Source: Candidatus Woesearchaeota archaeon (GTDB lineage Archaea; Nanobdellota; Nanobdellia; SCGC-AAA011-G17; UBA489). Taken from it: a DNA stretch of 62,737 nucleotides. The notes beneath the pieces are model-generated. The model did not search any database. It was not told the origin of the DNA and saw nothing but the letters and a program-made list of their open reading frames with translations. Position 1 is the first letter of the stretch. Every line of letters begins with the position of its first letter. Both the position numbers and the translations under genes were made by a program. Location of the stretch: NCBI GenBank assembly GCA_018658265.1, contig JABHVN010000002.1, forward strand, positions 1 through 62,737. The letters run 5' to 3'. Below, one piece after another: positions 5,701 to 23,170 of the stretch.

Positions 5701-6179
5701 CTATGATTACAGAAATTGAAAAAAATAAAAAATCAATTTTCATGAAAACATTCAAAATATTAAACAATAATTTCAGTAGAATATTTTTAACGCTATCAAA
5801 AAAAGGAAATGCTTCTATGGAACTTGAAAACAAAGAAGACCCATTAAGCGGAGGAATAGATATTAGAGTTAGAATAACTGGCAATAAATTCCTAGACATT
5901 AAATCTCTTTCAGGCGGAGAAAAAACAATGGCAGCGTTAGCATTTATTTTTGCAATTCAAGAACATCAACCAATGGCATTTTACCTATTAGATGAAGTAG
6001 ATGCAGCATTGGATAAAAGAAATTCAGAATTACTTTCAGAACTAGTTTCTAAGTATTCAGAAACGGCACAATATATTATGATTTCCCATAATGACAATGT
6101 AATCTCTGAAGCAGACTGTGTATATGGAGTAAGTATGCACGAAACAGGAATCTCTAAAGTAGTAAGTTTAAAATTATAA
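2754..6179 (+). CDS. smc: SMC chromosome segregation ATPase
   Basis: Walker A GPNGSGKSN, two long K/E-rich coiled-coil arms, central hinge, signature LSGGEKT, Walker B LLDEVDAALD, 1141 aa. Confidence 0.95.
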   Translation: MAIIKSMNLKGFKSFAKPLDLQFGKGFNCIIGPNGSGKSNVMDALCFVLGKLSAKSMRAEKSSNLIFNGGKKGSPQKEAEVSIVFSNDDNEFPIDADELKITRVIKNTGNSVYKINDQILTRQQILEVLAAGKIDPDGHNIILQGDIVRFMEMKPLQRKELIEEIAGISIYEDKKNKAMNSLTRVESQINDVSLILKEREAYLRELKKEKEQAEKYRKLEKNIKSNKATYLHVQITEKEKKLDDVKSKIAKQESQLSKFTENEKDIREKISTKKKELQDLNDDIEEKGEKDAIVLQDDIEKLKTDTAKNTERLSSCKSEVNKISERKKQLEVSIDDTTKTIKGLEESKKELLEEIKLLKEKEIKQSQKINQIKSKLGYSDNTELEKVETILDEKLKSYEDFQLKNQELLQKKFKLDAEISTLNEKISSVEKLEKDTSLQQTKKEVEKIAKELDKRLTEDTVLFSQLKKVKEDYSILNERLFKIQTQKSSMRASASVDLAIRKIKELKNPQIFGTVSELGEVEKKFSTALEVAAGPRTRSLVVQDDKVAAECIRTLKASRTGIATFLPMNKIRGRQVTRIKGPGVYGSAIELIDFDPRFKEIFSYVFSNTLVVENIETARKVGIGKVRMVTLEGDLVEVSGAMNGGYRTKRIGLGFQEKNLSSDLDKLSEKIDKAAALKTTFENRKLENENKISELRNLKAQLEAEVIKHERTSSGISLTELKKERDSNKINPVYQEFSELGKIMSTLNNEIQKLKAERIKLKGDSSPSEGKDELESSESRRLKTREEVVEKNTQIKNIEIQIANIYIPEKEKIHQLIKNCDKEKEEFKKEVKTLEELLKDQSSRLNKKESEKSKFQKLYKDLFSKRNKISENIQKLEASILLEASKEKTIKDRINDHAIIKAKVTAEVEALNSEFEEFKGVQLRRSHSVEELKLEIKNFESMLSKIGNVNMRALEVYEEILNEYTKLVEKRDKLSTEREDVLTMITEIEKNKKSIFMKTFKILNNNFSRIFLTLSKKGNASMELENKEDPLSGGIDIRVRITGNKFLDIKSLSGGEKTMAALAFIFAIQEHQPMAFYLLDEVDAALDKRNSELLSELVSKYSETAQYIMISHNDNVISEADCVYGVSMHETGISKVVSLKL

Positions 6180-7244
6180 ATTTTCTTCCACTTTTCTCAT
6201 ATTACCTATTTCTTTAGAATATACTGCAAATAATATGATAATCATTATAATAATTGATAACAAGATGATCTTAAACTTGACAGGGCTCAATCCATAATTA
6301 CTAACTATTGCAGGTTTCTCAGTAAATGGCTCATAGCGTCCAACCACCAATATTTCTGAGTCAACCAGTACATTATTTGCATATCTTACTTCAACACCTA
6401 CAACGTACAATCCATCCCTCACAGGAGGCATAGTCAAAGTCTTATCAAAACTAGATTTATCTCGAATAGTCATAAACTGGGAAGTCCTAATTAATTCATT
6501 ATTTTCAGAATCTTTGATAAAATATATTATTTCCACAACATCTCCGTCAAATCCTGAAAGGTCAACAGAAATCAATATATCTCCCCCAGAATTAATCTGT
6601 TTAAATTCTTCAGGAATACTTAATTCTAAATTTCCTCTTGCATTAATTGAACCAACATTCAGGATGATAGGAACATAACTTTTTAGGCCACTACCACTAG
6701 CAGATAAATAACCCGTTATAACTCCTAAATCCTTACCCATAAATCTAACAGTTACTATTTCTGATTCACCAATAGCAATAGTAATATTTGAAGGATCAAC
6801 AACAATATAATCACTAAGACTTGTACCGAAACTTAATTCAATATCATAATTAGCATTATTTCTCACAACTAACTCTCTTTCAACAATCCCTTTGTAAATC
6901 ATATCTAATTCTAATCTACCTGGATTAAATCCTAGTTTTCCACCTGAAGTCAAAACTTCTCCATCAGTTGTTGCAGCAGCCACTACCTCTGAAGTTGTGT
7001 CATTTGTATCTTCAGTTTCAGCATTGGGATCTTCAGTAACAGTGATATTCAAACTTCCAGCAACATTACCAGTAACATAAGATCTTTCTATTTCATTTTC
7101 GCCAACAACTGCTAAAATCTTAGAAAAATTAATTAACAATAAAATTAATATTACTAAAAATAGAAGAGTAAATGTATTGGTTTTTCTGTAAAAATCATCA
7201 GAATTAAATTTCAAACGTTTACCCCTTCTTTTTGACACACCCAT
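6174..7244 (-). CDS. Envelope protein with N-terminal basic segment plus TM, two beta-rich domains and a C-terminal TM (last gene of the surface island)
   Basis: MGVSKRRGKRLK..LLFLVILILLLINF anchor; beta-sandwich-like segments (LELDMIYKGIVERELVVRNNANYDIELSF; GLYVVGVEVRY); C-terminal IILLSIIIMIIILFAVY helix. No family recognised. Confidence 0.65.
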   Translation of the reverse strand: MGVSKRRGKRLKFNSDDFYRKTNTFTLLFLVILILLLINFSKILAVVGENEIERSYVTGNVAGSLNITVTEDPNAETEDTNDTTSEVVAAATTDGEVLTSGGKLGFNPGRLELDMIYKGIVERELVVRNNANYDIELSFGTSLSDYIVVDPSNITIAIGESEIVTVRFMGKDLGVITGYLSASGSGLKSYVPIILNVGSINARGNLELSIPEEFKQINSGGDILISVDLSGFDGDVVEIIYFIKDSENNELIRTSQFMTIRDKSSFDKTLTMPPVRDGLYVVGVEVRYANNVLVDSEILVVGRYEPFTEKPAIVSNYGLSPVKFKIILLSIIIMIIILFAVYSKEIGNMRKVEENL

Positions 7245-7283: not shown

Positions 7284-7688
7284 CTAAGGTTTTAGGTATA
7301 TTACCTTTAAATTTCCAGAATAAGTTCCTTTTTCGACACCTGGAGGAAGTTTAAGAACTAATTCTAAATTCTTTTTTTCACCAGCCAAAACCATAAAATC
7401 TGTATCTTCAACATACATATAATCTATCCCAGTAAGCTTAACTTTTACAGATATATCCACATCAGAACTAATAACTATGTCTCTTCTAAGCACCATATCC
7501 CCTCTTGCAGTACCAAAATGTATTGCATCTTCATCAAGATTAATTCCTATATGATCCCCTACAATATAATCCACATCATAAGTTTTGTACCCAATAATTT
7601 TAACATTAATATAAATAAAGAACAATAAAAAAATTAACAAAACAGAAACCAAAATGCCCAAGAGAGTTATTTTATAATTAAATTTCAT
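7284..7688 (-). CDS. Small membrane-anchored protein carrying one copy of the shared beta-sandwich module
   Basis: N-terminal TM (ITLLGILVSVLLIFLLFFIYI). Module motifs AIHFGTARGD, DISVKVKLTG and GTYSGNLKVIY are collinear with 8921..9571 and with the C-terminus of the giant protein; 4-nt overlap with the upstream gene. Confidence 0.65.
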   Translation of the reverse strand: MKFNYKITLLGILVSVLLIFLLFFIYINVKIIGYKTYDVDYIVGDHIGINLDEDAIHFGTARGDMVLRRDIVISSDVDISVKVKLTGIDYMYVEDTDFMVLAGEKKNLELVLKLPPGVEKGTYSGNLKVIYLKP

Positions 7689-8896
7689 TTTCCCAATTTA
7701 TCTTGTAATTGATCCATCTTATTGGAATAATCTTCTTTTTTATCGGATATATGGCCTTTTTTCCTTAAGGTTAACCAAAGAAAATTTGCAAAAATCAAAC
7801 ATACAATTAGAATTCCTGCAACCATTTCTTTTGTAAAGAATTTCTTATCACTGATAACTGAAAAATCAAATTTCTGTATTTTTTCAGAGCCGTTATACTT
7901 TATTGTAACAACCAATTGATAAGCTCCTTGATTAACATTGGAAATATCTAAATAAACAGGTACATTCTTTTCACCAAGAGCTTTCAAATCAAATCCATTT
8001 GAAATAGATCTTTCTGTAATAGGTACGCCATTTTTTTCAATATACGTTTCAATAACTACATCGTTAATAGCAATATTCCATTTATTATCCACAACAAACA
8101 TTAATTTCCTAATTCCTCCAAAAGTTGCATTAAAAGGATATTCAATAACTTCTACATCTTCATATCCAACTTTAAAAGTTATATTTCTATGGTCTGTTTC
8201 AATTCCGTCATAAGTTACAAAAGAGTCTGCAACAAATGTTCCACCGCCAATTTCAGAACTATCTACATTAATTGTCTTTGTAACTTTTACACCTGAAATT
8301 AAAGACGAAGCACTATCTTCAACTTCAAAAAGTTTCTCTTCGGTTGAAGGATCATAGATTATTAAATTAGATTTAAGTCCAAAAATATTTCCTTCTCCCT
8401 TGTTAGCTATATTGAAATTAAAATTCAATTCTTCCCCTTCATTTACATCTTCAACACTCAAACCATATTCTAAATACCTCTCAGGATACGGAACATCAAC
8501 AACAACTCTTGCAACTACCACCAATGAAGCAGATATACCTTCTTTTCTTTCAGTTATTTCTTGATTAACATTTAAATCATGATTAACTGGGCCATGGAGA
8601 TCTAAGCTAGCAGGAAAAGAATATTCTACAATATACTTTGTTGAAGACCCAGCCTTAACTTCTTGTACACCATTAACCATATTAAAATACTCAGAAAAGG
8701 GGCCTCCCAAATTAACTGAAGCATTAACAGATTCATCTCCGTTGTTTATTAGCATAATCTCAAAACTTCCTGCACCGTATGGTTCAAAGGAGATGTAGGT
8801 ATCACTTGGTGCAATTCCCAATGCATTAACTGTAGAAGTAAGAACTAATAAGAAAATTAAATAATTCAACACCTTCTTCATAGTTTTATTAAACAA
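7685..8896 (-). CDS. Secreted multi-domain beta-rich protein with C-terminal TM anchor (paralog of 9836..11041)
   Basis: Signal peptide ending NALGIAP, CARDB-like NIANKGEGNIFGLKSNLIIYDP, C-terminal helix GILIVCLIFANFLWLTL followed by RKKGH. Confidence 0.7.
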   Translation of the reverse strand: MFNKTMKKVLNYLIFLLVLTSTVNALGIAPSDTYISFEPYGAGSFEIMLINNGDESVNASVNLGGPFSEYFNMVNGVQEVKAGSSTKYIVEYSFPASLDLHGPVNHDLNVNQEITERKEGISASLVVVARVVVDVPYPERYLEYGLSVEDVNEGEELNFNFNIANKGEGNIFGLKSNLIIYDPSTEEKLFEVEDSASSLISGVKVTKTINVDSSEIGGGTFVADSFVTYDGIETDHRNITFKVGYEDVEVIEYPFNATFGGIRKLMFVVDNKWNIAINDVVIETYIEKNGVPITERSISNGFDLKALGEKNVPVYLDISNVNQGAYQLVVTIKYNGSEKIQKFDFSVISDKKFFTKEMVAGILIVCLIFANFLWLTLRKKGHISDKKEDYSNKMDQLQDKLGK

Positions 8897-8920
8897 AAAT
8901 AGTTTATAAATTTAACTAGA

Positions 8921-9571
8921 TTAAGCACCTAACGACCTTGCCGTGAACTGTATAAAGTCTCCAGCAGTACCATTAACTGTACTATTCAATGCAATAAGTA
9001 TGGAGATATTAATTTCGTCTGTGAATCCTCCAGCACTAGCATACGAAAAATTAGGACATACTGTTTTTTCTCCAGTGTCCAAATCCTGAGCAATTAATGC
9101 AAAAGCCATGTCTACTGATGCAGCACTATAACAAGACGAATTAGTCCATTTAGTTAAACTTGTATTCTCTAATCGATATTGATAACTTGGAGTGGGAGTG
9201 GAAAATAAATCTAAAGCTGTTTTTGTACTATTTATAGTTAGATTAACATAAACATTTCCATCATTTCTTAACCAAAAAGAAGTTGGACTTGAGAAACCAT
9301 TAGGATTAGCATTAGGTTCAGTGGAATTAATCAGAGTATTACCAGTAGTACTTACATACCCAGTTCCAAAATTAACATTTGAAGCCAATAATGCCACATC
9401 AACAGTTGTAGATACTGTTACATTAACAGATCCAGTTGTTTCATTAATAATATTAAATCCTGTTAATCCGCTAATTCCACCTGTAACAAATAAGATGGTA
9501 GAAATAGATCCAAGAACTACTAATAACGTAAGTAATCCTGTAAAATTTAAAACTCTGTCAGTAATTTTCAT
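8921..9571 (-). CDS. Small N-anchored or secreted, sequon-rich protein consisting of the shared beta-sandwich module
   Basis: N-terminal hydrophobic helix, more than 10 N-x-S/T sequons. Motifs NVNFGTGYV, FWLRNDGNVYVNLTINS and EINISILIAL..GDFIQFTA are collinear with the last ~160 aa of the 2,626-aa protein. Confidence 0.7.
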   Translation of the reverse strand: MKITDRVLNFTGLLTLLVVLGSISTILFVTGGISGLTGFNIINETTGSVNVTVSTTVDVALLASNVNFGTGYVSTTGNTLINSTEPNANPNGFSSPTSFWLRNDGNVYVNLTINSTKTALDLFSTPTPSYQYRLENTSLTKWTNSSCYSAASVDMAFALIAQDLDTGEKTVCPNFSYASAGGFTDEINISILIALNSTVNGTAGDFIQFTARSLGA

Positions 9572-9789
9572 GTGCTTCCCTCTTCAGTTTCAGGATTAGG
9601 TAAAATTTCTATATTAACTTTTGCACCTGTGTTATCTTCATATGATTCTTCTTCTTGATCAACAGTAACAGTATCCTCTTCAACATTACTAACAACTGTC
9701 CAAGTAATTAATAAACTAATAAATATAACTAAAACTAATAATGCAAAAACAAGTTCTCTCTTAACTACCGTCTTTTTCGCCCTAACCAT
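9568..9789 (-). CDS. Small single-pass membrane protein with acidic tail
   Basis: MVRAKKTVVKRE + LVFALLVLVIFISLLITWTV + Glu/Asp-rich tail; 4-nt overlap with the downstream gene suggests translational coupling. Confidence 0.5.
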   Translation of the reverse strand: MVRAKKTVVKRELVFALLVLVIFISLLITWTVVSNVEEDTVTVDQEEESYEDNTGAKVNIEILPNPETEEGST

Positions 9790-9835
9790 TGAACAAAACC
9801 TATTATAATGAATATATAAACTTTGCCATAGTTCT

Positions 9836-11041
9836 CTAATCTCTCCTTTTAAACCAATGCATCCAAACCAGATTAATCATAATTAAAATAATCAATATGC
9901 TTAATAATATCCAAGAAAGATTGCTAGTAAATTTATCCTCATAACCTTGTTTTACTCCTTCAACAACAAATTTATTTTCGTAAAACGTCGTTTCTATATT
10001 TTGTTCGATATCTTTGTTTCCATAATGCACTCTTAATTTAGTGATATATTCTCCTTCCTCTAAGTCTCCAACATCAATATGTCCTGTAAATTTTCCTTCT
10101 TTTCGTTTGGAAATGCTTTCCTTAGATGTGACAAATGAGCTTATTAATAAATTATTCAGATCATAAACACTTATTTCTGCATAAACATTATTTAATTCTT
10201 CATTCCAAATATTTTTAACAGTCACTTCGAATTTCACAGCATCTCCCAAAACTTCTCCCACAATTAAGTCATTAATACTCATTTTTCTTCCTTCAACAAT
10301 AAACTTATCTTCAAATTCATTAATTTTAGAATCGTATTCTAGAATAACATTAACAAAATACTCTCCAGGATTAACTTCAGTTGACCAAACTAATCTAATC
10401 TCTTTTCTTTCTCCAGTAACTATAGAAATAGATTTACTTTTTAGTTCATCAATAGTATTTTGTCCATCATGAATATTCAAAGCAACGCTAACTTTTGAAA
10501 GATTTTCTACACCCAAATTCTCAACAGGAATTACAAAAATAGTATTTGATCCTACGTCCCCCTCATAAATGTAAAAATCAGAAGAAATATATTTGGTATC
10601 ATGAGGTACTTTGACCCTCAGTAAACTAATCAAACCAACACTGGTACCTATTAAATTCTCTTTTAGATCTACAATTTCCCTAGCAGTAAAATAGATATCA
10701 TTATTTCCCTGAGAGATATCATTTTTTGAAAGAGTTTTTGGAATATTCAATGAATATTTGACAATAGTTTCTTTATTGGCCTCCAACGACAGAATATTTC
10801 CTTTTTCTAAAACTACATATTTAGACAATTCTCCTTCTACACCTATTGAAACCTTAGTAAACCTGTCTAAAGTATTAACTACTTTAAATTCCGATTCAAA
10901 ATTTAAGCCATCTTCAAAATCAACAATTTTTTTGGCAGGAGAAATGCCTAAAGCACTAACCAATGAAACAGTTAAAACTAACAAAGTAAAAACACTTAAC
11001 AAATTAAAAATAAATTTCTTACCCTCCATTGATTTCACCAT
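9836..11041 (-). CDS. Secreted multi-domain beta-rich protein with C-terminal TM anchor (paralog of 7685..8896)
   Basis: Signal peptide ending SALGISPA, CARDB-like VENLGVENLSKVSVALNI, C-terminal helix WILLSILIILIMINLVWMHW followed by FKRRD. The start overlaps the end of the giant ORF by 23 nt (alternative ATG at 11029). Confidence 0.7.
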   Translation of the reverse strand: MVKSMEGKKFIFNLLSVFTLLVLTVSLVSALGISPAKKIVDFEDGLNFESEFKVVNTLDRFTKVSIGVEGELSKYVVLEKGNILSLEANKETIVKYSLNIPKTLSKNDISQGNNDIYFTAREIVDLKENLIGTSVGLISLLRVKVPHDTKYISSDFYIYEGDVGSNTIFVIPVENLGVENLSKVSVALNIHDGQNTIDELKSKSISIVTGERKEIRLVWSTEVNPGEYFVNVILEYDSKINEFEDKFIVEGRKMSINDLIVGEVLGDAVKFEVTVKNIWNEELNNVYAEISVYDLNNLLISSFVTSKESISKRKEGKFTGHIDVGDLEEGEYITKLRVHYGNKDIEQNIETTFYENKFVVEGVKQGYEDKFTSNLSWILLSILIILIMINLVWMHWFKRRD

Positions 11042-14000
11042 ACCATGTTGTTAATTCCAAAATCATGCCCTTTGCGCCAGCCAATTCACCTACAGGGACA
11101 GATATATTAAAATCAATTCTAGCTTCATCAGAAGAATCATCTTTGCTTAAATTATTAATAAACTTTTCAGTAACTCCTGAGGCAGGCATAATTCTGTAAG
11201 TAATATTTGAATCTGCAGAATCAAAAGAAGATCCTTCTGTACCATCTCCAACTTTCACACTAAAATAATCTATACTATGAGGTAAACTTTGTGTATCCCA
11301 AAATGCAACAGTTGGCCCAGTAATATTAACATCCGCTAGAACATTTCCAGAGTTTTCAATCCAAATCGGACAAGGTGTAGGAGTTTGTGTTGATAAATCG
11401 CATCCAGAAGTTTCCGATCTAACCCCAACACCCAAACTACCAAAATCAACAACTTGATCTAAAATGTCTAATGCAATATAAGTAGACAAATTATAATTAA
11501 ATACTGTAGGTAAATCTTCTTCTTGTACATATGGATCTTCAGATTTTACTGTCCACCTATAAAAATTATTATCGTCATAAAATCTAGTTAATTCTGTAGG
11601 TAATGTAAAAGTACAATTATCTTCATTATCAAGATAACCATTAGCATTAGCATCACAATTCGTTGAATTTTCAACAACTAAATATTCTCTTTCGTCATCA
11701 CAAGTTCCACCTGCCACAACAAAACAACTAATGTTCAATGTATGGTTAACCTGATCTTGATCTGGATCAGATGTTCTACCTTGACAAAAGAAATTTCCTT
11801 CTGAAACGCAAGAAGTATTACTTACACTTGGCAACCTATCGAAAATATCAGAGGGAGTCCAATTAAACGTAGGTGTTCTGTTTGTGTAAGTTATTGTTTC
11901 ATCAGGGCCATTTAGTACTGCCGTGCCAGGTTCATAATTTTCAATAAAGATATATGATGAATTTTCTTGATCTGAAACACTGGACCTGGTATCGGTTGTA
12001 GTAATATTACAACTATAATTTTCAAAATGATTATATGTAAATGCCGAAAGATTATCCGTATATGGATATCCTGAAGTTAAACCTGTAGGAGTTTTAGTAG
12101 CGAACAAATCAGTACCATTGTAATACTTAATCGTTACATCTAATGTTGAATCCCAATCATCTAATGGTGTAAATGTACAATTAATACCTGTGGTTCTATT
12201 AACTCCTGTAGGGCCTATTGAGAGGGAATTAATTTCGGGTTTCCTATCTATTGTAAACATCCAAGAATCACTTTCATTTGAAAGTTTAGGTACATATTCT
12301 TCAGTATCGTAATCATCAACTTCAACAAACCAAGAATGATCTCCAGAAGGTAATCTATACATATCTAAAACTTCCGAAGCATTTAAACTTTTATTTAAAA
12401 TTGCAAATTCATCTATAGATCCATTAAATTCATAATCAATTAAACCTACGGCTGTTCTACCTACACCTATTAAAACAGCTGCATTATTGTTAGGCATTGA
12501 AGGAACTGTAAATGTACTATTAAAAACGCCATCTATGTAGATTGTTACTTGATCACTCTCATTAAAACTAACAACAATATGAGTCCATTCGTCTTTTTGA
12601 AAGACCCCATCAATAATGGGTGTACTCCCCTCTATTTTCAACCCAAAATCATCACCAACCTGTCTAATTGCAAAACCTGAAGAAACAGCAGCCCTTTTAT
12701 CAAATATTCCTCTTGTGTCACTTAAAATTCTTGGTTTGGCCCAGAAAGAATAAGAAATATTATTTTCACTTACCCAATTATCTTGATCCCCAAAGTTTAC
12801 AAGGTTATCTATAGATGTAGCCGTACTAAAAAATGTCCCCCCAAGTCTTCCCCCAGTTTTATTAATTCTTGCAGCACCCCCCATAGTTCCATTTTGAACA
12901 CCGTCAGAATCAGCAAAATCAAAAACATGTGTACTATTTTCCCCATATTTAGTATTATTATCAAAATGTGCCAACAATAAATAATTACTATCTGGAACTA
13001 AAACTGGAGCTGTCCAATTATAGGTAAGATATGTATTGTTTTGCCAACTAATGTTTTGATACAGCATATCTGAATATGAAACGTCAGATTTAGTTTGTCC
13101 ACTTGACCCATAAATCTTAACAAACATTAATGGATCTTCTGCATCTAACACAGTTGAATTCAATAAAATTTCTCCTACATCTGTGTAATTAGTAGTATTA
13201 ATTGGTGCAATTACAGTTGCATTGGGATGAGTATTCGTCACAACAGCACCTATGTCAAATTGAAATAAATCCGAATTATTAACTAACTGACTATCATCAC
13301 CAGAAGCATTCCAATAATAAGTTGTATCTGTTAATTTTAATGTTTGATTTATTTCTTCACTAGTTAAAGTTCTGTTTATTACAATAAAATCATCAATACC
13401 CCCATTCCAAGGAAGGGGATTACCACCATTATTAGAATTACTAGCTCCAATCCTAAAATTAAGAATTGCTGCAGTGTAAATTGCATGAGTATTTGTAAAT
13501 GTGTTATTCAATACACCATTCCTATATACTGCATATGACCCATTTTGAAATCTTGTAATGGCCATATGAACCCACTCGCCATTATTAAGAAAAAAACCTG
13601 GAGTAAGAGAAGTTGTATCACTTGCACCATTTCCTTGAATAACTGCCATATTTTTGCCATTTTGTCCAACAAAAAAACCAACATATTGTCCAGGAGCACC
13701 AGCAGGATCAAACACTCCCTGGGCAGCAAACATTCTTGATTGAGTTATATCGTCCGACCTAAGCCAACCCATAATAGTTAAATTCCACCTATGTTGAATT
13801 TCGGTATATCCAGGGGCAACTGTAACCCAGTCTCCTGTACCATCAAACTCAAAGTTTCCACCAAAAATATCATTACTATAATCTACTGCTGCATCGCCCC
13901 CCGGAGTACCATTTTTAACATCTGCCCAATCATAAACCTTTGTTGAAGATTCACCTTTAGATAAAATTTGATCAAAATGGAATCCAAATAATGTATCACT

Positions 14001-17000
14001 TACAATATCGAAAGGACGTTTACTAAAATTATAGCTTACTTTCGTACCATTGGTTACATTCGCCTTGTAAACTAAATCATCCAATTCAGGATTGCTATCA
14101 TTAGAAGCATAAATCTTCAAAGTAACATTATCCACAGGCAACAGGTCGTCAACAACTGTTACATTAAGCTCAACACCTGCAGTACCAGAATCATGATTAG
14201 TTGTATTTGCAGGAGCAGTAATTGTCACATTAGGTATTTCATTTGGATCTATAATGTGATCAAACTCTAAAAACGCAGTATTTAATCCATCATCATTAAT
14301 AACTTTCAAATCAAATGTATCATTCTCTCCAGACATAGCCGTCAAATAGGCCTTATAATACCCTTCAGAACTAATGTTATCAAATGTAGTAATTAAATTT
14401 GAAGTATTCTCTTCGTAAACCTTCACATGAGTATTCGCACTTTGATTATTCCTTACATAAATTTTAATGTGGTGTGCAGGAGTTAAATTTTGTTCAAAAG
14501 TTACCCTAACAATCTCAGTATTATTAATCATTTCAGTCCAATTACCATCCAAAGCATTAGTTTGATTATACACATCTGAAATAAAAGAATAATTTTCATC
14601 CAAATGTTGTGCAGCAGTTATATTTATTTCACCAAAACCTGGGTCATTAGGCGTGATAGTTATATTGTAATCTTGACCCGGAATCATCCCTTCTTTTAAT
14701 AACGTCCATGACCCTCCGCAAGATTGATCAGTATAATTCCAATCCGCACATTTATACAAAGTATTGGAAGTTGCAGTAACGGTTACCGTTGCATTTACAA
14801 AATTTTGTAGTTTGGGATTAATTGCAAATGTTTTTTGAAATTTATCTATTGGAACTGCTTTATCCAAATCAATAATTTGATTTACCCCATTAGACATGTT
14901 ATAATCTTCAAAAAGGATTTGTTTGATAGTTCCATCAATGGGTTTAAGAATAATATCATAAATTCCAGAAGATAAGCTCAAGTTGTGAATAGTTCCGTTT
15001 TGAGAATATACATTTCCTCCCCCATCACTATTAATTTCTAACGACACATTAACTGGAACACCATTTCCATCAACAACAGTTTCATTAACTGTCACATTAG
15101 AAGATTCTCCGCCACCAGAATAAGCTGGCCATTCAATTGTTTGAAAAGTATAATCTTGTATCTGTCCACTGTCAGATTGCCATAAATTTGCAGTAGAAGT
15201 ATCGGTTAGTTGAACTGCAACATATCCCCTTGGCCATGCCGTTCCAGTTCCACCGGACTGTGAACTAACACCTGCAATAGAAGTTTCTCCTAATCCGTAA
15301 GTTAAACCTGTAAGTGTTACTTGCCAATTATCTTCTTCCTCACCACCAGTTGGACGCGCAGTAGGATTATAATGAGTGACTTTCATAGGATAGTTTTCGG
15401 TTTGAGTATTAGAAATAACCCATGTTACCGCATTCATATTTGATCCCCAATTCGTAGTGCCCCTAGGCAAACTATAAGTAACTGTATTTGTTGCAGTCAA
15501 TTCAACTTCTGCACCACCTTGGATCAAACCATCATAATTATTTCCTGCTTCATTTCTCTGTTGAGTATGGAAAAATGCACGACTAATGGCACCAACATCA
15601 GTGATAGTATCATATTGGATTGCAGATGCATTAAAGGCATGCGCTACTCTTTGAACATTCCAATTTGAACCCTTATATTCTACAATTGCATAACTAATAT
15701 CGCAATTATCGCTTGCAGCTTCTCCCCTTGTAAATCTGGGTAAATCTGAAACGGCAACCCATGCAGAAGTTACCATACAAGATTGATGATCGTTTCTCCC
15801 TACATCAGAATTACTGGCGCCTGTCAAAAATACAACAACATCTGCATCATCAGTGGGAGCAATAATTGCTCCATCACAAGTTAAACTAGATGTTCCAAAA
15901 GAACAAGTTCCAGTATCAATAACATCCATTTCATTAGGATCTCCAATTGTTCCACTATACTCCCAGATTTCCCAAGAAATTCTATTGTTTGTTGCAGACC
16001 CACGTCTTGTAAATGTAATTGTCCCACTTCCAGCTGTAAGTCCTGTATCATCAGAAATGTAAGTAGTATAATCATCCACATTTTGGTTTCCTCCACCAGA
16101 TGTGCTTCCAACAGCATTGTTTCTTGAAGAAACCTGTTTAATAAAACAACTTCCAGTACATTGATTAAAGTCTACACCCTCTGTCAATATTCCAGTTAGG
16201 GATGCAGAACCCATGATCAATGAACCCCTTTGAATAGTAAAGTCGCTTGTACCACTAGGATCTACAATATAATCAAATTTTACTTTACCGTCAATTATTT
16301 TCAAATCAAATGTATCTTGTACACCTGCAAGTCCAGATAAATAAACTTTGTTAAATTCATCATTTCTAATAGCAACAAACTCAGCTATAATTTCTTTCCC
16401 ATCGACAGTATAAATTTCAATTTTTGGAGACCCTTCAATAATTTGAGGATAAATTGTTATATCGTTATCAGATCTTAAGTTTTTTTCAAAAGTTACTCTT
16501 ACATATTCACCATCATTTATTGTCTCACTCCAAATTCCATCTAATTTACTTACATTACTGTAAATATCTGACATAAATGTCCTATTTACATCTAAATGCA
16601 ATGCATTAGTAATTACAATTATTTCATAAGTTTCATTATTTTCTAAAAGTGGTACAACCCATTCAACATAGTCAACAAGACCATCTTGATTATTATCTTT
16701 TAATGAAAAGTTGTGTTTTTGTTTAATTTCTTTCCCAGTAAATGTGTCTAAAATTATTCTATAAAGATTAACTTTATCAGCCTCGCTTTCAGGAATGTTA
16801 ACAAAAGATAATACATTTTCATAAGTTAAATCTGATTTTAATACTACCCTCACACCTTCGGAGATATTTTCTACCTCTAATGTGGGACCAGGCGTTTCAT
16901 ATTCAATCTCAACAGTTTCAACTAGATCATCAACTTTAACTATATCTACCTCTGCACTAAGATTTGAATCATTCACAATTGTTTCTTGTAAAGGTAGGGT

Positions 17001-18899
17001 CTCTATCAAAGGAACTTCAGAAACGACCATCCCTGTTATTGAATTTCCGGTTATTGAATTCAAAATTCCTTTTGTAAATCCTTCTGAAGAATCTCCAGTT
17101 AAATTAATAATCGTCCCATTACCTTCATCCAAACTAGCAGAAACAATAGGGGCAGTTTTTCCATTAACTATTTTATTCAAAGTTATATTCTCAGCTACAT
17201 CAGGAAGTTCAAACTCAACCTTCTCTTTAGCAGCATCAAGCATTATTTTTTTCTTCCATTTTACAGGTTGACCTATAATCGCACCGTACTGTATTGTTTC
17301 TTCAGTAACATTTCCAACAGTAGAAACTATGGTAGTTGTTTTGGTAACATTTATCAAAGTTTCAACAATAATCTCTGGTTGAATATGTTCAACTCCAAGG
17401 ATAATTTTTCCTTGTCCATCATTAAAAGATAAAGAATAGTTAACTCCTTCTAAAGATTCATACTCACTTTTAATCAAACTTAAATCCAAAACTGAATCTT
17501 TAATATAAAATTTCAAAATAAAATTATTACTTAATACATTCTTTAATTTACAAGTATCTTCGCATCCAGAATCAAATGAATTTATAGTATAATCGCTAAC
17601 ATTCATAATATCTAATAGGTTAACCAAAAAATCTTCTTTCCCTACTTCAATTTCTTCTTCAGATTCAATTTCTAGATCTTCTTCAATATCTTCTAATTCA
17701 AATACTCCTTCTGCAAATGCCATAACCTCTCTAGCTAAATCTGCAGTATAATTTTCAGAATTGTTAATATCGAACAAATATATCCAATCAGTTAAACAAA
17801 TACCAAATTCAAAATCCCAGTAACTACAACCATACAAAAAGTCTCCTTCAGATTGTGCACTAAAAGAAGTATTAGTTTCATTAAAGGCAGTAAGGTTCAA
17901 TCCACTAAAATCAAACCCAAATACTCTTTCAAAAGATATGTTATTTGGTTCAATTAATCCCTTAGAAGAATACTCTTCATATGCAAACCACCCTTCTTTT
18001 TCAGGATATTCTATTTCAATAAAATCATCAAGTTCAACAACAGCAGTACCATTGCTCCCATTCAAAGATTCATACTTAACTTTTTTACCTCGTGAATCAA
18101 TTACATTAAAACCAGTTAATAATGATGCAATTTCCTTGTAATTCTTAATATTTTCAACAGGGTCTTCAAGAACAGCATTACCAGTTATACCTATTGAATC
18201 AAAAAAACTTTCATCATTAGATTCACTATCATAAACTAAATATGTATCTCCTGAATCAACATCAGATAAAAATATTTTAGCTACACCTTCTTCGAAAGAA
18301 GCAGTTCTTCCAGATAGCTTCAAACTCTTTAGTTTTTCAATTCCATTAAAATTTAAACTATACTCAGAACTTTCACTAACTAATAATGAGATCTTATGTT
18401 CTCCTTCTTCAACAGGCTTTGCTTCAGAAAAAATAAAATCTCCAGTTATTTTATTTCCTTCAGAAACTACATTACCAGTTATAGGGATTCCATCTTCGAA
18501 GCCTTCTCTAGCAATATCTGAAAATGTTTTAAATTCAATAGCAAAACCACCACTAATATCGTTACTGTTATCAACATTAAGGATACCTCCAAAATGCATA
18601 AATCCTACTAACATAGTTATCAAAACAAAAGACAAGAATATTCTATCTTTCATATGTACATCATGATCTTTAATTAAGATAAGATGTGTTCGAGGATTTA
18701 ATGTTTTTTTCAGGGTTGCACTACTTCTTTTATGGACCGATTTAGAACTTTCTTTCTTTAATACTTTTAATTTCTGTCCGGCTTTCTTTAAATCACTACC
18801 AAGATAAACAGATTTAACTTTTCCATTTTTCAGTCTAATACTATCGTAATAGTATGGACCTAATTTTTTACCCCTTTTTGTAATATACTTCTTATACAA
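11019..18899 (-). CDS. Giant (2,626 aa) membrane-anchored surface protein: two Ig-like+LamG units, a duplicated ~120-aa module, a Cys-rich region and a C-terminal beta-sandwich module shared with two small neighbours
   Basis: Uninterrupted 7.9-kb ORF. TTG start at 18899 preceded by AGAGGGA. Residues 1-82 are Lys/Arg-rich with GPYYYDS..NGKVKSVYLG. The first ATG (18653) opens the hydrophobic helix MKDRIFLSFVLITMLVGFMHFGG. LamG-type (Laminin_G_3-like) C-terminal signatures are GGIDDFIVINRTLTSEEINQ (~13345..13405) and GSIDEFAILNKSLNASEVLDMY (~12355..12420). Dozens of N-x-S/T sequons. Confidence 0.85.
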   Translation of the reverse strand: MYKKYITKRGKKLGPYYYDSIRLKNGKVKSVYLGSDLKKAGQKLKVLKKESSKSVHKRSSATLKKTLNPRTHLILIKDHDVHMKDRIFLSFVLITMLVGFMHFGGILNVDNSNDISGGFAIEFKTFSDIAREGFEDGIPITGNVVSEGNKITGDFIFSEAKPVEEGEHKISLLVSESSEYSLNFNGIEKLKSLKLSGRTASFEEGVAKIFLSDVDSGDTYLVYDSESNDESFFDSIGITGNAVLEDPVENIKNYKEIASLLTGFNVIDSRGKKVKYESLNGSNGTAVVELDDFIEIEYPEKEGWFAYEEYSSKGLIEPNNISFERVFGFDFSGLNLTAFNETNTSFSAQSEGDFLYGCSYWDFEFGICLTDWIYLFDINNSENYTADLAREVMAFAEGVFELEDIEEDLEIESEEEIEVGKEDFLVNLLDIMNVSDYTINSFDSGCEDTCKLKNVLSNNFILKFYIKDSVLDLSLIKSEYESLEGVNYSLSFNDGQGKIILGVEHIQPEIIVETLINVTKTTTIVSTVGNVTEETIQYGAIIGQPVKWKKKIMLDAAKEKVEFELPDVAENITLNKIVNGKTAPIVSASLDEGNGTIINLTGDSSEGFTKGILNSITGNSITGMVVSEVPLIETLPLQETIVNDSNLSAEVDIVKVDDLVETVEIEYETPGPTLEVENISEGVRVVLKSDLTYENVLSFVNIPESEADKVNLYRIILDTFTGKEIKQKHNFSLKDNNQDGLVDYVEWVVPLLENNETYEIIVITNALHLDVNRTFMSDIYSNVSKLDGIWSETINDGEYVRVTFEKNLRSDNDITIYPQIIEGSPKIEIYTVDGKEIIAEFVAIRNDEFNKVYLSGLAGVQDTFDLKIIDGKVKFDYIVDPSGTSDFTIQRGSLIMGSASLTGILTEGVDFNQCTGSCFIKQVSSRNNAVGSTSGGGNQNVDDYTTYISDDTGLTAGSGTITFTRRGSATNNRISWEIWEYSGTIGDPNEMDVIDTGTCSFGTSSLTCDGAIIAPTDDADVVVFLTGASNSDVGRNDHQSCMVTSAWVAVSDLPRFTRGEAASDNCDISYAIVEYKGSNWNVQRVAHAFNASAIQYDTITDVGAISRAFFHTQQRNEAGNNYDGLIQGGAEVELTATNTVTYSLPRGTTNWGSNMNAVTWVISNTQTENYPMKVTHYNPTARPTGGEEEDNWQVTLTGLTYGLGETSIAGVSSQSGGTGTAWPRGYVAVQLTDTSTANLWQSDSGQIQDYTFQTIEWPAYSGGGESSNVTVNETVVDGNGVPVNVSLEINSDGGGNVYSQNGTIHNLSLSSGIYDIILKPIDGTIKQILFEDYNMSNGVNQIIDLDKAVPIDKFQKTFAINPKLQNFVNATVTVTATSNTLYKCADWNYTDQSCGGSWTLLKEGMIPGQDYNITITPNDPGFGEINITAAQHLDENYSFISDVYNQTNALDGNWTEMINNTEIVRVTFEQNLTPAHHIKIYVRNNQSANTHVKVYEENTSNLITTFDNISSEGYYKAYLTAMSGENDTFDLKVINDDGLNTAFLEFDHIIDPNEIPNVTITAPANTTNHDSGTAGVELNVTVVDDLLPVDNVTLKIYASNDSNPELDDLVYKANVTNGTKVSYNFSKRPFDIVSDTLFGFHFDQILSKGESSTKVYDWADVKNGTPGGDAAVDYSNDIFGGNFEFDGTGDWVTVAPGYTEIQHRWNLTIMGWLRSDDITQSRMFAAQGVFDPAGAPGQYVGFFVGQNGKNMAVIQGNGASDTTSLTPGFFLNNGEWVHMAITRFQNGSYAVYRNGVLNNTFTNTHAIYTAAILNFRIGASNSNNGGNPLPWNGGIDDFIVINRTLTSEEINQTLKLTDTTYYWNASGDDSQLVNNSDLFQFDIGAVVTNTHPNATVIAPINTTNYTDVGEILLNSTVLDAEDPLMFVKIYGSSGQTKSDVSYSDMLYQNISWQNNTYLTYNWTAPVLVPDSNYLLLAHFDNNTKYGENSTHVFDFADSDGVQNGTMGGAARINKTGGRLGGTFFSTATSIDNLVNFGDQDNWVSENNISYSFWAKPRILSDTRGIFDKRAAVSSGFAIRQVGDDFGLKIEGSTPIIDGVFQKDEWTHIVVSFNESDQVTIYIDGVFNSTFTVPSMPNNNAAVLIGVGRTAVGLIDYEFNGSIDEFAILNKSLNASEVLDMYRLPSGDHSWFVEVDDYDTEEYVPKLSNESDSWMFTIDRKPEINSLSIGPTGVNRTTGINCTFTPLDDWDSTLDVTIKYYNGTDLFATKTPTGLTSGYPYTDNLSAFTYNHFENYSCNITTTDTRSSVSDQENSSYIFIENYEPGTAVLNGPDETITYTNRTPTFNWTPSDIFDRLPSVSNTSCVSEGNFFCQGRTSDPDQDQVNHTLNISCFVVAGGTCDDEREYLVVENSTNCDANANGYLDNEDNCTFTLPTELTRFYDDNNFYRWTVKSEDPYVQEEDLPTVFNYNLSTYIALDILDQVVDFGSLGVGVRSETSGCDLSTQTPTPCPIWIENSGNVLADVNITGPTVAFWDTQSLPHSIDYFSVKVGDGTEGSSFDSADSNITYRIMPASGVTEKFINNLSKDDSSDEARIDFNISVPVGELAGAKGMILELTTWYGEINGG

Positions 18900-18974: not shown

Positions 18975-20582
18975 TTAATAAATTGGCAAATTATTAGTTC
19001 CGTTTAACCAAAAGGTATATTCAAAGGCAGTCCTTCCATTAAATGCGCTGTTTAGGTCACTAACAATATATTTTATATCTGCTTTATTATTATCTGTCAC
19101 AATTTCATAGTATCCGGAATCTGCTGAACCCCAAATTCCTTTATTATAATCTGCAACGCCATTATTATCGTAATCCATTACATCTTTGAAGCAATTTAAT
19201 TTTGACCAAGGCGCTCCAACACCAGAAGATTTTCCACCAGAGATATAATACACTCCATCACCTTGATTATTTGCATCTTTTTTTTCACCAATAGTTGCTA
19301 CATGATCATGACTCAAAAAGAAAAATTGGCCATTATACTTTTTCATTAATTTGTGCAATGTTGCTTGCTCTCCTAAAAAGGTACCATTAACTTCTCCATT
19401 ATCCGTAGCCTTCAAACTACTTCGCCCATAAAAATAACAAGATATTGATGAATTTGGATCAGTTACTCCTCCATCTATATGCTCAATAAATACAAACTTC
19501 CATTTTCTATCAGAAGTTTTCAAAACCTCTTCAAACCACGATAATTGTTGGGTACCCAAGGTCCATTCATTAACATTTTGAGGAATATCCTCGGGACCGC
19601 CCATAATATCTAAAACTATTATTTGAACATCGCCAGAAGAAAAAGTATAATACTGACCTTCGGGATTACCAATAAATACTTCGCTAGGATTAGGTAAATA
19701 TTTCATTCGTGCATTATGGCTTAAATTTGCAATTTTATCAGAATGATCACATTGGTCAAGTGCACTATTGGGGTCTCCAAAACTAGTTTCTCCATCATGA
19801 TTTCCTAACTTGTAAATCATTGGTGCAGAATCAGTAATTGCACCATAAACATCCTCGCCAAGGATTAATTCATATCTTAATTCTGCTTCTCTTGCATTTT
19901 CAACAGAGGTATCTCCAGAATCTTCACCATTAATATTACACCTATCACACCCATTACAATGAGTCATAGCTTCATCTCCACCCATTACAAAAAATTCTGC
20001 TTTAGGGGAAATATCAATTATATTATTCAATGTTTGTTTATGTAAATCCATTCCATCTATAGCCCTTTGATTTGGAACTCCAGGAGCACAAACCTCATTC
20101 CTATTTCCCCTGGAATATAATCCATAATAATGGGAGTCTGCCATTGCTACAAAGGTAACTGGATTAGTATCATCCCTATCTCTTAAGGTTCTAAATGTAT
20201 ATTCTTCTCGAACTCCAAAACTAGTTCCATTAGCTTTTTTACATCTAGTTCTATAAAAATATCTTTTTCCAGGATCTAATCTATCTAATTTGAAAGTTAC
20301 TCTTTCTCCTGCTAAAACAGTTTTAATAGAAGTACTCGCTAAATATTTTTCTCTTTTATAACCCTACTCAATGTAAACATCCGCATCTTCTTTTGGAACC
20401 ATACTAACATCCATGGTAGTTAATTGGGGATTAGATAATGTTTCTTCAATAGTAAACTCTACATCGCATAAATACTTTTCAGAACTAACTAAACTTTGTG
20501 CATAAATTGATTGAATAGAAACAACTGCTACAAATAAGAATATTACTACAGAAAAAATAACCGATGCTTTCTTTGAATACAT
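18975..20582 (-). pseudogene. Secreted purple-acid-phosphatase-like metallophosphoesterase interrupted by an in-frame TAG at 20364..20366
   Basis: ORFs 20364..20582 (signal peptide MYSKKASVIFSVVIFLFVAVVSIQSIYA) and 18975..20144 share one frame. The 73 codons between them are open and encode GERVTFKLDRLDPGKRYFYRTR..EYTFRTL (PAP N-terminal Fn3-like domain) running into the metallophosphatase motifs FVAMADSH, GGDE, GNHD, FIEH, LSHDH. Confidence 0.75.
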
Positions 20583-22289: not shown

Positions 22290-22673
22290 TCATTCTTCTT
22301 CTTTGAATGTTGAGGCAATATCAATGATGTATTTTCCTTCAGATAACTTATACACTAAAGGTTCACCCTTAAACAAATCTACTAAATCAATTTCAAAATG
22401 TCCAGGTTTCAAAACACGGATAGATTCTAAGTCTAAAACTACTGGCAAATCTTTTTTGTTCTCATCGTCACTTTTTTCGCCAACAAGTTCCATGGCATCT
22501 TTTTCCATTTGAACTTTGTCAACAGTACTTAGACTAGTAGTAAGTTTTTTTGCTTCTTCAATGGATTTTTCTTTCATGAAGAAAAAGAATTTTCCACCAC
22601 AAGTACATCCTGTAAGAACTTCTCTAGAACCATCTTCATATAACTTAGAACATCTTACACATTGGTGAGGCAT
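22290..22673 (-). CDS. Zn-ribbon protein (archaeal DUF2072-like)
   Basis: N-terminal CVRC..x14..CTC zinc ribbon (MPHQCVRCSKLYEDGSREVLTGCTCGGKFFFF). Lies in the conserved archaeal neighbourhood with a DUF2073-like protein and a small GTPase. Confidence 0.7.
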   Translation of the reverse strand: MPHQCVRCSKLYEDGSREVLTGCTCGGKFFFFMKEKSIEEAKKLTTSLSTVDKVQMEKDAMELVGEKSDDENKKDLPVVLDLESIRVLKPGHFEIDLVDLFKGEPLVYKLSEGKYIIDIASTFKEEE

Positions 22674-23158: not shown

Positions 23159-23170
23159 CTAAATCACCTC

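Follow-up and report, generated by a model that had tools for sequence, protein, structure and literature searches.

A β-sandwich module shared by a small protein and a giant LamG protein in a conserved archaeal gene cluster

The WxL (Csc) gene clusters of Firmicutes, adhesin clusters of Gram-positive gut bacteria, encode a small WxL protein (CscB/Swp), a large WxL protein (CscC/Lwp), a WxLIP composed of DUF916, DUF3324 and a transmembrane (TM) segment (CscA/Duf), and a small LPXTG protein (CscD). In the published clusters the small WxL protein consists of the domain only, the large one carries a shorter C-terminal WxL domain behind its adhesin domains, and the WxLIP has a C-terminal TM segment (PMC10599100, PMC9772566). 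An AlphaFold2 (AF2) prediction has a strand of WxLIP filling a gap in the WxL sandwich (PMC10599100), and the WxL/WxLIP complex has been regarded as occurring almost only in Lactobacillales and Bacillales and as relying on binding to peptidoglycan (PMC10599100, PMC9772566). Archaeal strand-complemented fibres are Sec-exported, glycosylated and assembled without an usher (PMC9715654, PMC11821415, PMC12337348); TLP-1 has also been described (PMC11494351).

Here we describe a seven-gene cluster in 62,737 nucleotides of DNA from a Candidatus Woesearchaeota archaeon (positions 1 to 62,737 of contig JABHVN010000002.1, assembly GCA_018658265.1; the whole stretch is called the window). Attachment to other cells is the way of life of DPANN archaea, and to our knowledge the means by which Woese- and Pacearchaeota attach are essentially unknown. 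A conserved locus that pairs a variable giant LamG adhesin with a constant module and fixed anchors is a concrete, testable candidate for attachment machinery.

Positions, strand and supporting evidence of the cluster's features in the window
Feature	Position	Strand	Basis
356-aa protein: N-terminal TM, VTGNVAGSLNITV, Ig-like domains, C-terminal TM	6174..7244	-	TM segments, hhalign
134-aa protein: N-terminal TM anchor and one ~100-aa β-sandwich	7284..7688	-	hhalign to first Ig-like domain of 401/403
403-aa protein: second WxLIP-like membrane-anchored Ig protein	7685..8896	-	hhalign, TM segments
216-aa "small" protein	8921..9571	-	AF2 model, family profile
β-sandwich module in 216-aa protein, residues ~48-214	8930-9430	-	family profile, AF2 model
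73-aa mini-protein: basic N-terminus, TM, acidic linker, one conserved strand (tGakVnIeIlP)	9568..9789	-	conservation
401-aa protein: signal peptide, Ig-like domains, C-terminal TM; WxLIP-like (DUF916/DUF3324-like)	9836..11041	-	hhalign
Giant 2,626-aa "large" protein	11019..18899	-	Pfam, TM and sequon analysis
C-terminal module of giant, residues ~2468-2626	11022..11498	-	hhalign and HMM homology with 216-aa protein
LamG domain of giant, residues 2034-2177	12369-12800	-	Pfam Laminin_G_3, E 8.5e-36

The small protein and the giant C-terminus share a module

Sequence comparison shows that the β-sandwich module of the 216-aa protein is homologous to the C-terminal ~150 residues of the giant. BLASTP relates the 216-aa protein to the giant C-terminus at E 7e-4. 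With hhalign, the 216 family matched one giant tail at E 0.0026, five tails at E 1.1e-10 (Prob 97) and ten at E 5e-14 (Prob 98.2, 145 columns); a profile of 144 family sequences reached E 2.2e-19 against the giant tail, and 3.6e-20 once the TM segment was removed. The real score of 123.8 compares with 12.2 +/- 1.4 for column shuffles and 14.7 for a reversed profile. Independently of the large proteins, an HMM built from small proteins only, with the giants left out, matched giant residues 2468-2617 at 40.0 bits (E 8.7e-13). An earlier note on this DNA proposed a length of ~130 aa for the module; it is in fact ~150 aa long in the giant and reaches ~167 aa in the 216-aa protein. That note was right that the giant ends in the module of its small neighbour, in which the module constitutes the whole mature protein.

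The module family comprises 1,818 representatives (>1,800 at 50% identity) in DPANN archaea, and searches of Pfam and NCBIfam with it found no model. At the N-terminus of the 216-aa protein a conserved hydrophobic segment (residues 7-36) leads into an h-T-G motif (residues 36-38; T 88% and G 98% across the family) and a first strand, G-x-V-N-V-T-V (residues 47-53). The giant begins with a conserved cytoplasmic part of ~85 aa and a TM segment (residues 87-109), followed by an ectodomain of ~2,350 aa that bears two LamG domains and 95 N-glycosylation sequons. Sequons, of which the 216-aa protein has 12, are ~2.3-fold enriched only in these two proteins, as expected of exposed components.

The earlier note had assigned the module to the 134-aa protein as well, envisaging a single PapD-like/ASH module in three proteins and homotypic assembly. 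All nine of its motif strings, three collinear blocks in each of three proteins, are present in the sequence, and the best local hhalign matches of the 134-aa protein sit in the register of block 1 or block 3. Its score of 20.6 against 10.2 +/- 2.0 for column shuffles is also in favor, although such shuffles destroy β-strand periodicity and any β-sandwich would beat them. BLASTP gave the 134-aa protein no significant match to the module, hhalign against the module gave E 0.12-0.15, and the module HMM scored the protein at 3.6 bits. The largest profiles, with TM segments removed, yielded E 0.003 over 29 columns with the 216 family and 6e-4 over 48 columns with the giant tail. These matches are no better than those that unrelated Ig domains give to the module; the 216 family reaches a like level against the Ig domains of the 401- and 403-aa proteins (hhalign scores ~18). 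The pattern xFG...N.G...V.I, which the earlier note called typical of PapD-like/ASH-type β-sandwiches, is generic, and the 216-family profile matches a similar motif in the 401-aa protein. The 134-aa domain fits the first Ig-like domain of the 401/403/356 family better, across its whole length (Prob 89, E 2e-6, 82 columns). By these comparisons, membership of the 134-aa protein in the module family is not demonstrable, and the protein is related instead to the first domain of the WxLIP-like proteins. The three-protein proposal is largely refuted as to the 134-aa protein, and only the shared module of the other two is confirmed; taken whole, with its PapD-like/ASH identity and homotypic assembly, we regard it as very improbable.

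Partner proteins and conservation of the cluster

The gene order giant-401-73-216-403-134-356 is identical in 12 further loci of Woese-, Pace- and Nanoarchaeota. Across loci, the length of the large partner ranges between 456 and 2,626 aa, and its end is always the module; the LamG adhesin is the rapidly varying element, coupled to a module and membrane anchors that stay the same. The start of the 401-aa gene overlaps the end of the giant gene by 23 nt, and the 216-aa gene lies mid-operon, overlapping the 73-aa gene by 4 nt. The cluster adjoins SMC. No chaperone or usher gene was found in the cluster or its flanks, nor a dedicated signal peptidase in the cluster.

The 401- and 403-aa proteins are paralogs (E 1e-42). 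Their hydrophobic segments (residues 9-36 and 370-398 of the former, 13-31 and 355-378 of the latter) give both the signal peptide and C-terminal TM helix characteristic of WxLIP. With TM segments removed, the 401/403/356 family matches Pfam-verified WxLIP by hhalign with Prob 97 and E 5.6e-11 over 206 columns spanning DUF916 and DUF3324 (score 83.6, against 16.7 for the reversed profile and 14.2 +/- 2.0 for shuffles), and the 403-aa protein matches at E 2.7e-7 over 210 columns. As a negative control, an upstream 440-aa Ig/TM protein matches WxLIP only across its signal-peptide region. WxLIP_HBD is the commonest Pfam match within the family (7 of 25), under the gathering cut-off; the best scores are 27.2 for HBD (cut-off 28.9) and 22.4 for PGBD (cut-off 27.3). 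The WxLIP motif NQIDKxxxYFDLK is absent from the 401- and 403-aa proteins, whose mature N-termini are GISPAKKIVDFEDG and GIAPSDTYISFEPYG. The relationship to WxLIP is at the profile level only, and cross-matches are common among families of Ig-like domains.

No test detected the module as a WxL domain. The WxL model PF13731, which gives genuine small WxL proteins 130-244 bits, has no match in the 216-aa protein, in the tail of the giant or among 144 members of the family (ten checked to E <= 10). The two conserved Trp-x-Leu motifs on adjacent strands that mark WxL domains are absent: no Trp is conserved among the 144, a W at position 100 occurring only in the window's lineage. Against verified WxL domains the module reached E 0.045-0.38 by hhalign, the positive control of small against large WxL giving 1.3e-13. 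The architecture is that of WxL clusters: beside genes for WxLIP-like proteins, a single module makes up the entire small protein in its mature form and recurs as the last domain of a large adhesin.

Two further proteins carry a strand motif. The 73-aa mini-protein is present in every locus examined and is similar to the first ~60 residues of the 216 family when the TM segment is included (E 1.5e-7 and 4e-8), but not significantly without it (E 0.0035-0.04), so that the likeness rests largely on the TM segment. In the 356-aa protein, which matches the 73-aa family at E 3e-5 and has weak Pfam matches to Cep192_D3 and HYDIN Ig below cut-off, VTGNVAGSLNITV corresponds to the TG and strand motif of the 216- and 73-aa proteins.

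One alternative gives the module no role in assembly. It might be a ligand- or glycan-binding domain, or a merely structural Ig-like one, of which a duplication left one copy in a small membrane-anchored glycoprotein and another in the giant, with each protein held independently by its own N-terminal TM helix. The N-terminal hydrophobic segments of both proteins are long enough to serve as uncleaved anchors, and the giant, which keeps its conserved cytoplasmic domain and TM segment in most loci, may not need the module as a tether. However, in locus L003 an ordinary signal-peptide-like N-terminus replaces this region and its TM segment in the large partner; if it is cleaved, the module would be the only visible tether of that protein. 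The strict conservation, in distantly related DPANN lineages, of a module-only small protein paired with a variable module-ended large one, in a fixed gene order that includes the same five partners, also argues against a module without an assembly role, as do fold neighbors that are assembly subunits. We consider such a role-free module improbable.

Predicted fold and models of assembly

The AF2 model of the 216-aa protein is confident (pLDDT 86.8). Its nearest solved folds are strand-complemented subunits (TLP-1a/b, FimA/G/I, CsuA/B, CsuE, CS20 and cannulae), which account for ~30 of the first 50 structures matched in the PDB; Foldseek gives the top matches probabilities of 0.85-1.0, but the scores are weak (best E 1.4e-3, TM-scores 0.3-0.54). 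No Pfam PapD, ASH or MSP match was found for the 134-aa protein, the 216-aa protein or the giant, and in the fold search the CEP192 ASH structure 6fvi ranks 24th (E 0.1) and the MSP structure 6tqs 47th, with ~20 pilin or fibre subunits above. The PapD-like/ASH assignment of the earlier note was accordingly abandoned: the modeled fold most resembles donor-strand-complemented pilins, though the E-values are weak.

This resemblance raises the main alternative, a donor-strand-exchange fibre like type 1 and Csu pili, archaeal threads, Tafi, ABP and TasA. The 216-aa protein would polymerize head-to-tail by N-terminal strand donation, with the giant at one end through its C-terminal pilin-like domain (compare FimH and CsuE) and the strand of the 73-aa or 356-aa protein capping and anchoring the other. 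Besides the fold matches, the family keeps an N-terminal extension with the TG motif and an alternating-hydrophobic strand, strand-only proteins exist in the cluster, and the 216-type genes of L003 are tandemly duplicated, as is often seen in major and minor pilins. Sec-dependent, usher-free archaeal precedents are available in threads (PMC9715654) and in Tafi, with its LamG tip protein (PMC11821415). Yet the fold E-values are weak, and the giant's module has a putative first strand of its own (alignments begin at residue ~48 of the 216-aa protein), making it a less than obvious strand-less acceptor. The giant is also anchored at its N-terminus with a conserved cytoplasmic domain, the mid-operon, overlapping 216-aa gene is not placed as one would expect for a strongly expressed major pilin, the cluster encodes neither a chaperone nor an usher nor a signal peptidase of its own, and a WxL-like model fits the cluster's composition better. 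A fibre seems rather unlikely.

The reading we prefer, with chances that we put at about even, is that the module docks the LamG adhesin to membrane-anchored partners, probably through β-strand complementation, and by analogy plays the part that the WxL domain plays in the Firmicute clusters. The cast would be the module-only small protein, the module-ended large adhesin, two WxLIP-like Ig proteins with a C-terminal membrane helix, a 73-aa anchored mini-protein with little beyond one β-strand, and the anchored Ig proteins of 134 and 356 aa. After Sec export the module would be an incompletely closed β-sandwich, to be completed in trans by a strand from a membrane-anchored partner; candidate donors are either of the WxLIP-like proteins, or the 73-aa or 356-aa protein with its strand. 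This would hold the small protein together with the glycosylated giant on the surface of a peptidoglycan-free cell, where the LamG domains of the adhesin would be displayed, plausibly to the cell that hosts this DPANN episymbiont. Archaea have no peptidoglycan, so wall binding in the WxL style is unlikely to be the anchor here. Of the options offered in the earlier note for assembly through the module, docking to a common partner comes near this best explanation; context and fold both point to assembly or docking.

Comparison with known surface systems

Tentatively, the seven-gene locus may represent a new kind of surface-assembly system, present in nearly all Woese-, Pace- and Nanoarchaeota, in which a variable giant LamG adhesin is joined by β-strand complementation to the 216-aa subunit (a platform or short fibre) and to WxLIP-like anchors as an episymbiont's host-attachment apparatus. 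This possible view further holds that the system shares ancestry with WxL/Csc and that strand-only proteins (the 73-aa protein, CscD) are overlooked strand donors in both. The locus would extend the WxL/WxLIP type of surface complex to peptidoglycan-free archaea; if that extension holds, such clusters would serve at their core to dock proteins to one another, probably through insertion of a strand, and not to bind the wall.

With PapD-like, ASH and MSP domains the module has in common a 7-8-stranded Ig-like sandwich and generic FG ... N.G ... V.I strand motifs. Donor-strand fibres (type 1 and Csu pili, TLP-1, Pyrodictium cannulae, Sulfolobus threads, Tafi, TasA/ABP), among which the nearest solved folds occur, likewise have an N-terminal strand extension, and the giant is comparable to the adhesins FimH and CsuE, with their C-terminal pilin-type domain, and to TafC, a LamG-bearing tip subunit. 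They differ in lacking any sequence relationship to the module, and polymerization here is hypothetical. The pilin families of Tafi (TafA/C/E) and TasA/ABP and the cluster-encoded signal peptidase (TafD/SipW) were not matched, save for TafC, whose NCBIfam match covers only the LamG region of the giant (45 bits against a cut-off of 410).

The WxL/Csc clusters differ in several respects. The archaeal cluster has neither sortase nor LPXTG, its strand-only protein being anchored by an N-terminal TM segment rather than a C-terminal LPXTG; it has two WxLIP-like genes and the additional 134- and 356-aa proteins; its large protein is 2-3 times longer and mostly carries a conserved cytoplasmic N-terminus and TM segment; and members of the 216 family share a TG motif and, at the N-terminus, a highly conserved hydrophobic region. 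In both systems the C-terminus of the large adhesin is a shorter version of the small protein's module, with small-versus-large similarity of equal magnitude (E ~1e-13 each), and the Ig-like partners are ~350-400 aa with a signal peptide and C-terminal TM. Both also include a tiny anchored one-strand protein resembling the N-terminus of the small protein; in Firmicutes this is the small LPXTG protein, consisting of a signal peptide, one strand and an anchor, and homologous to the small WxL N-terminus (E 2.3e-6).

The module of the 216-aa protein and the giant

The 216-aa protein and the C-terminus of the giant, a 2,626-aa LamG adhesin encoded in the same cluster, carry homologous copies of a β-sandwich module of about 150 residues. 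Their pairwise similarity is weak (BLASTP E 7e-4), and a protein database search with the last 193 aa of the giant returned no matches; homologous tails were instead gathered from related clusters on other contigs. Comparison of the 216 family with giant tails by hhalign gave E 1.1e-10 with five tails and E 5e-14 with ten (Prob 98.2, 145 columns), and a profile of 144 members of the small-protein family aligned with the giant tail at E 2.2e-19, or 3.6e-20 when the transmembrane (TM) segment was removed. Reversed and column-shuffled controls scored 12-15 against a real score of 124. Column shuffles on their own proved too permissive a test for domains rich in β-strands, so scores were judged against comparisons between families. 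An HMM built from the small proteins alone, with no giants included, matched giant residues 2468-2617 (40 bits, E 8.7e-13) as well as the C-termini of "large" proteins in nine other loci.

The earlier note had placed this module in three proteins, citing motif strings that are all present in the window. The claim holds for the 216-aa protein and the giant and is not supported for the 134-aa protein, for which BLASTP and the first profile comparisons with the module were not significant. Even the largest profiles, compared after removal of its TM segment, aligned the 134-aa protein over no more than 29-48 columns (E 0.003 with the 216 family, 6e-4 with the giant tail), and the small-protein HMM scored it at 3.6 bits. 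The 216-family profile does at least as well on the Ig domains of the 401- and 403-aa proteins, to which it is unrelated. The 134-aa protein aligns best with the first Ig-like domain of the membrane-anchored 401/403/356 family (Prob 89, E 2e-6, 82 columns covering the whole domain; E 3.5e-6 in an earlier comparison), and its own domain is a relative of that domain in the 401- and 403-aa proteins.

Among 1.84 billion representatives searched by profile, 1,818 proteins matched at E <= 1e-3, of which 788 reached E <= 1e-10; nearly all have 200-240 aa, and a few are giants with the module at their end. The named members, all annotated as hypothetical, are Pace-, Woese- or Nanoarchaeota or "DPANN"; the 216-aa protein of the window has an identical counterpart in a "Candidatus Woesearchaeota archaeon". 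No Pfam or NCBIfam family matched any of 144 module-family members, and none of three profiles run against PDB chains found a sequence relative. In the 216 family the hydrophobic N-terminal segment is strongly conserved (consensus M-E-I-S-N-K-T-L-A...S-L-G-G-T), with a nearly invariant T-G directly behind it. Also conserved are a G-x-V-N-V-T-I strand, F-G-x-G, L-x-N-D-G-N with an invariant glycine, two cysteines, and a closing hairpin, "...I-P-x-D-A-x-G-x-K...T-I-T".

The conserved hydrophobic helix prompted a type IV pilin reading, which was rejected: the protein in the window has no K/R-G/A cleavage motif, a linker of 20-30 aa separates helix and domain, genes for an ATPase or a platform are missing from the cluster, and neither type IV pilins nor archaellins are among the fold neighbours. 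TasA/Tafi membership was rejected for lack of NCBIfam support and of a signal peptidase.

AlphaFold2, run on the 144-sequence alignment, predicts an N-terminal helix followed by an eight-stranded β-sandwich (pLDDT 86.8, pTM 0.72); a model from a 12-sequence alignment (pLDDT 49) gave jelly-roll and TNF-like matches that were discarded as meaningless. No PDB structure matched the 144-sequence model strongly in Foldseek (best E 1.4e-3), yet the matches form a consistent set: about 30 of the top 50 were TLP-1a/b, FimA/FimG/FimI of the type 1 pilus, CsuA/B, the tip adhesin CsuE, CS20, PapE, Pyrodictium cannulae and the "Hyper2" tube. Each of these subunits is completed by the β-strand of a neighbouring molecule. 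TLP-1 has been described (PMC11494351). The PapD/ASH label initially given to the module is not supported, the CEP192 ASH/PapD-like domain appearing only at rank 24 and an MSP domain at rank 47. At a best E of 1.4e-3, the model weakly suggests that the module's fold neighbours are strand-accepting subunits rather than the chaperone fold.

Organization and conservation of the cluster

The seven cluster genes lie on the minus strand in a window of about 32% G+C, tightly packed and in several cases overlapping (see table). Their order, giant-401-73-216-403-134-356, is repeated in every related locus read (L001 and L003-L015), and the cluster is conserved. Loci L004-L011 have the same order, as does L015, where SMC is again adjacent; L003, L013 and L014 (Pacearchaeota) show small variations; and in the Nanoarchaeota loci L001 and L012 the 216 homolog is 37% identical. 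The "large" partner ranges from 456 to 2,626 aa across loci, always with the module at its end. The 456-aa partner, in L003, has an ordinary signal-peptide-like N-terminus in place of the conserved N-terminal region and TM segment. This more distant cluster also contains two tandem 211-aa paralogs of the 216-aa protein.

Features of the surface cluster, its flanks and comparison loci
Feature	Position	Strand	Remarks
SMC gene	2754-6179	+	divergent; one flank of cluster
356-aa protein	6174-7244	-	
134-aa protein	7284-7688	-	
403-aa protein	7685-8896	-	
216-aa protein	8921-9571	-	
73-aa protein	9568-9789	-	
401-aa protein	9836-11041	-	
Giant, 2,626 aa	11019-18899	-	
Giant residues 1-109	18573-18899	-	cytoplasmic segment, then TM
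389-aa protein	18975-20144	-	between giant and 440-aa protein; weak PhoD-like/metallophosphoesterase match, E 0.0023
440-aa protein	20665-21987	-	signal peptide, Ig-like domains, C-terminal TM; NPCBM_assoc 42.7 bits, FixG_C
oapC, oapB (origin-associated) and GTPase gene	22290-23956	-	other flank of cluster
440-aa homolog	L001:1631-2941		
440-aa homolog	L005:595-1890		
Tandem 211-aa paralogs	L003:7018-7653, 7671-8306		
Firmicute small LPXTG protein	L019:3603-3953	-	
Firmicute small LPXTG protein	L038:3660-4028	+	

Adjacency to SMC is also seen in L001, L004, L005 and L015, which points to a fixed chromosomal position of the surface cluster, probably near the origin. The 440-aa protein is kept just upstream of the giant in several loci and shows distant similarity to the 401/403 family (E 9.5e-8, signal peptide included); it could belong to the locus as an eighth component. 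The presence of the 389-aa protein is inconsistent among related loci.

The 401-aa protein is a paralog of the 403-aa protein (E 1e-42), and in both a signal peptide precedes Ig-like domains and a TM segment at the C-terminus. Two proteins, the giant with 95 and the 216-aa protein with 12, carry about 2.3-fold more N-glycosylation sequons than expected; none of the other five (401, 403, 356, 134 and 73 aa) exceeds expectation. This pattern fits two exposed components, the giant and the 216-aa protein, and five membrane-proximal proteins.

The giant begins with a highly conserved cytoplasmic segment of about 85 aa (MYKKYITKKGKKxGPYYYDSIRLKNGKVKSVYLGSDLKKA...KRSSATLKK), also present in L001, L005-L008, L010 and L011. 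No Pfam family covers it, the sole match being a weak DUF1678 hit (E 0.0076) in one homolog. For a giant adhesin, such a conserved domain inside the cell may point to coupling from the inside out or to a dedicated signal for targeting. The N-terminal TM region of the giant is not significantly similar to the N-terminus of the 216 family (E 0.23); both have an h-T/S-G motif after the TM segment. Close to the membrane on its outer side, the giant (residues 140 ITGNVV, 151 ITGDFI, 238 ITGNAV and 621 ITGMVV), the 216-aa protein (residues 36-41, LTGFNI) and the 356-aa protein (residues 57-62, VTGNVA) carry a short h-T-G-x-h-h motif. Two copies after the giant's TM segment are conserved in most loci, and in the 216 family T is conserved in 88% and G in 98%. 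The motif may mark a site of processing or the start of a strand.

Strand-bearing anchored partners

In the 73-aa protein a basic N-terminus and a TM segment lead, through an acidic linker, to a single conserved strand, t-G-a-k-V-n-I-e-I-l-P; in certain homologs there are two strands of this kind. The 73-aa protein aligns at E 1.5e-7 and 4e-8 with the N-terminal 60 or so residues of 216-family proteins, a similarity that without the TM segment is only suggestive (E 0.0035-0.04; 19.3 against 7.2 +/- 1.2 for shuffles). The 356-aa protein starts with a TM segment, "TG" and G-x-L-N-I-T-V, as do the proteins of about 650 aa that replace it in L003 and L013.

We propose that the module is a docking domain that would be completed in trans by a strand of a membrane-anchored partner, and that the giant and the small protein would thereby be kept in one surface complex. 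The main rival is a fibre polymerised from the 216-aa protein and carrying the giant at one of its ends. Three points speak against the 216-aa protein as a classical major pilin: its gene lies in the middle of the operon with a 4-nt overlap with the 73-aa gene, the giant has its own conserved cytoplasmic domain and TM segment, and the giant's module contains its own first strand.

Comparison with WxL clusters and pilins

A faint precomputed WxLIP_HBD match in one 401-type homolog was the first pointer to the WxL clusters of Firmicutes. When 25 sequences of the 401/403/356 family were scanned with Pfam, WxLIP_HBD was the most frequent match (in seven; best E 4e-6, 27.2 bits against a cut-off of 28.9), and WxLIP_PGBD appeared in two. 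Twenty-nine Firmicute WxL loci (L016-L044) were collected via the published WxLIP motif NQIDKxxxYFDLK, and representative genes were checked with Pfam (WxL 130-244 bits, WxLIP PGBD and HBD, a sortase). With TM segments removed, the 401/403/356 family aligned with WxLIP across both WxLIP domains (Prob 97, E 5.6e-11, 206 columns), scoring 83.6 against 16.7 for the reversed control and 14.2 +/- 2.0 for shuffles. The 440-aa Ig/TM protein, of NPCBM_assoc/FixG_C type, served as a negative control and matched WxLIP only across the signal peptide. At the level of sequence profiles, the 401- and 403-aa proteins are thus related to WxLIP.

A minimal WxL cluster encodes three proteins: a small one that is the WxL domain alone, a large one whose adhesin domains are followed by a shorter WxL domain at the C-terminus, and a DUF916-DUF3324-TM protein. 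A small LPXTG protein often accompanies them; the N-terminal WxL strand is suspected to rearrange, and an AlphaFold2 prediction has a WxLIP strand filling a gap in the WxL sandwich (PMC9772566, PMC10599100). This description matches the DPANN cluster nearly point for point. CscD, the small LPXTG protein, is made up of a signal peptide, a single strand (s-K-A-G-I-T-F-s-n), a linker of low complexity and the LPXTG anchor. It shows no similarity to the 134-aa protein. Its N-terminus is homologous to that of the small WxL protein (hhalign E 2.3e-6), and on this alignment CscD may give a strand to a WxL domain, an idea not raised in PMC9772566 or PMC10599100. Like CscD, the 73-aa protein is one strand and an anchor; thus both systems include an anchored protein that offers little beyond a copy of the small protein's first strand.

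A literature search found nothing relevant tying DPANN archaea to WxL clusters or to donor-strand assembly or pili. The DPANN module may resemble the donor-strand-exchange pilins in fold, but their machinery is absent from the cluster. The module also fails the defining tests of a WxL domain: it did not match verified WxL domains (E 0.045-0.38, where small against large WxL gave E 1.3e-13 in the same test), and its family has no conserved Trp-x-Leu motifs. Nevertheless, the DPANN system would work like the WxL/Csc clusters and is partly homologous to them.
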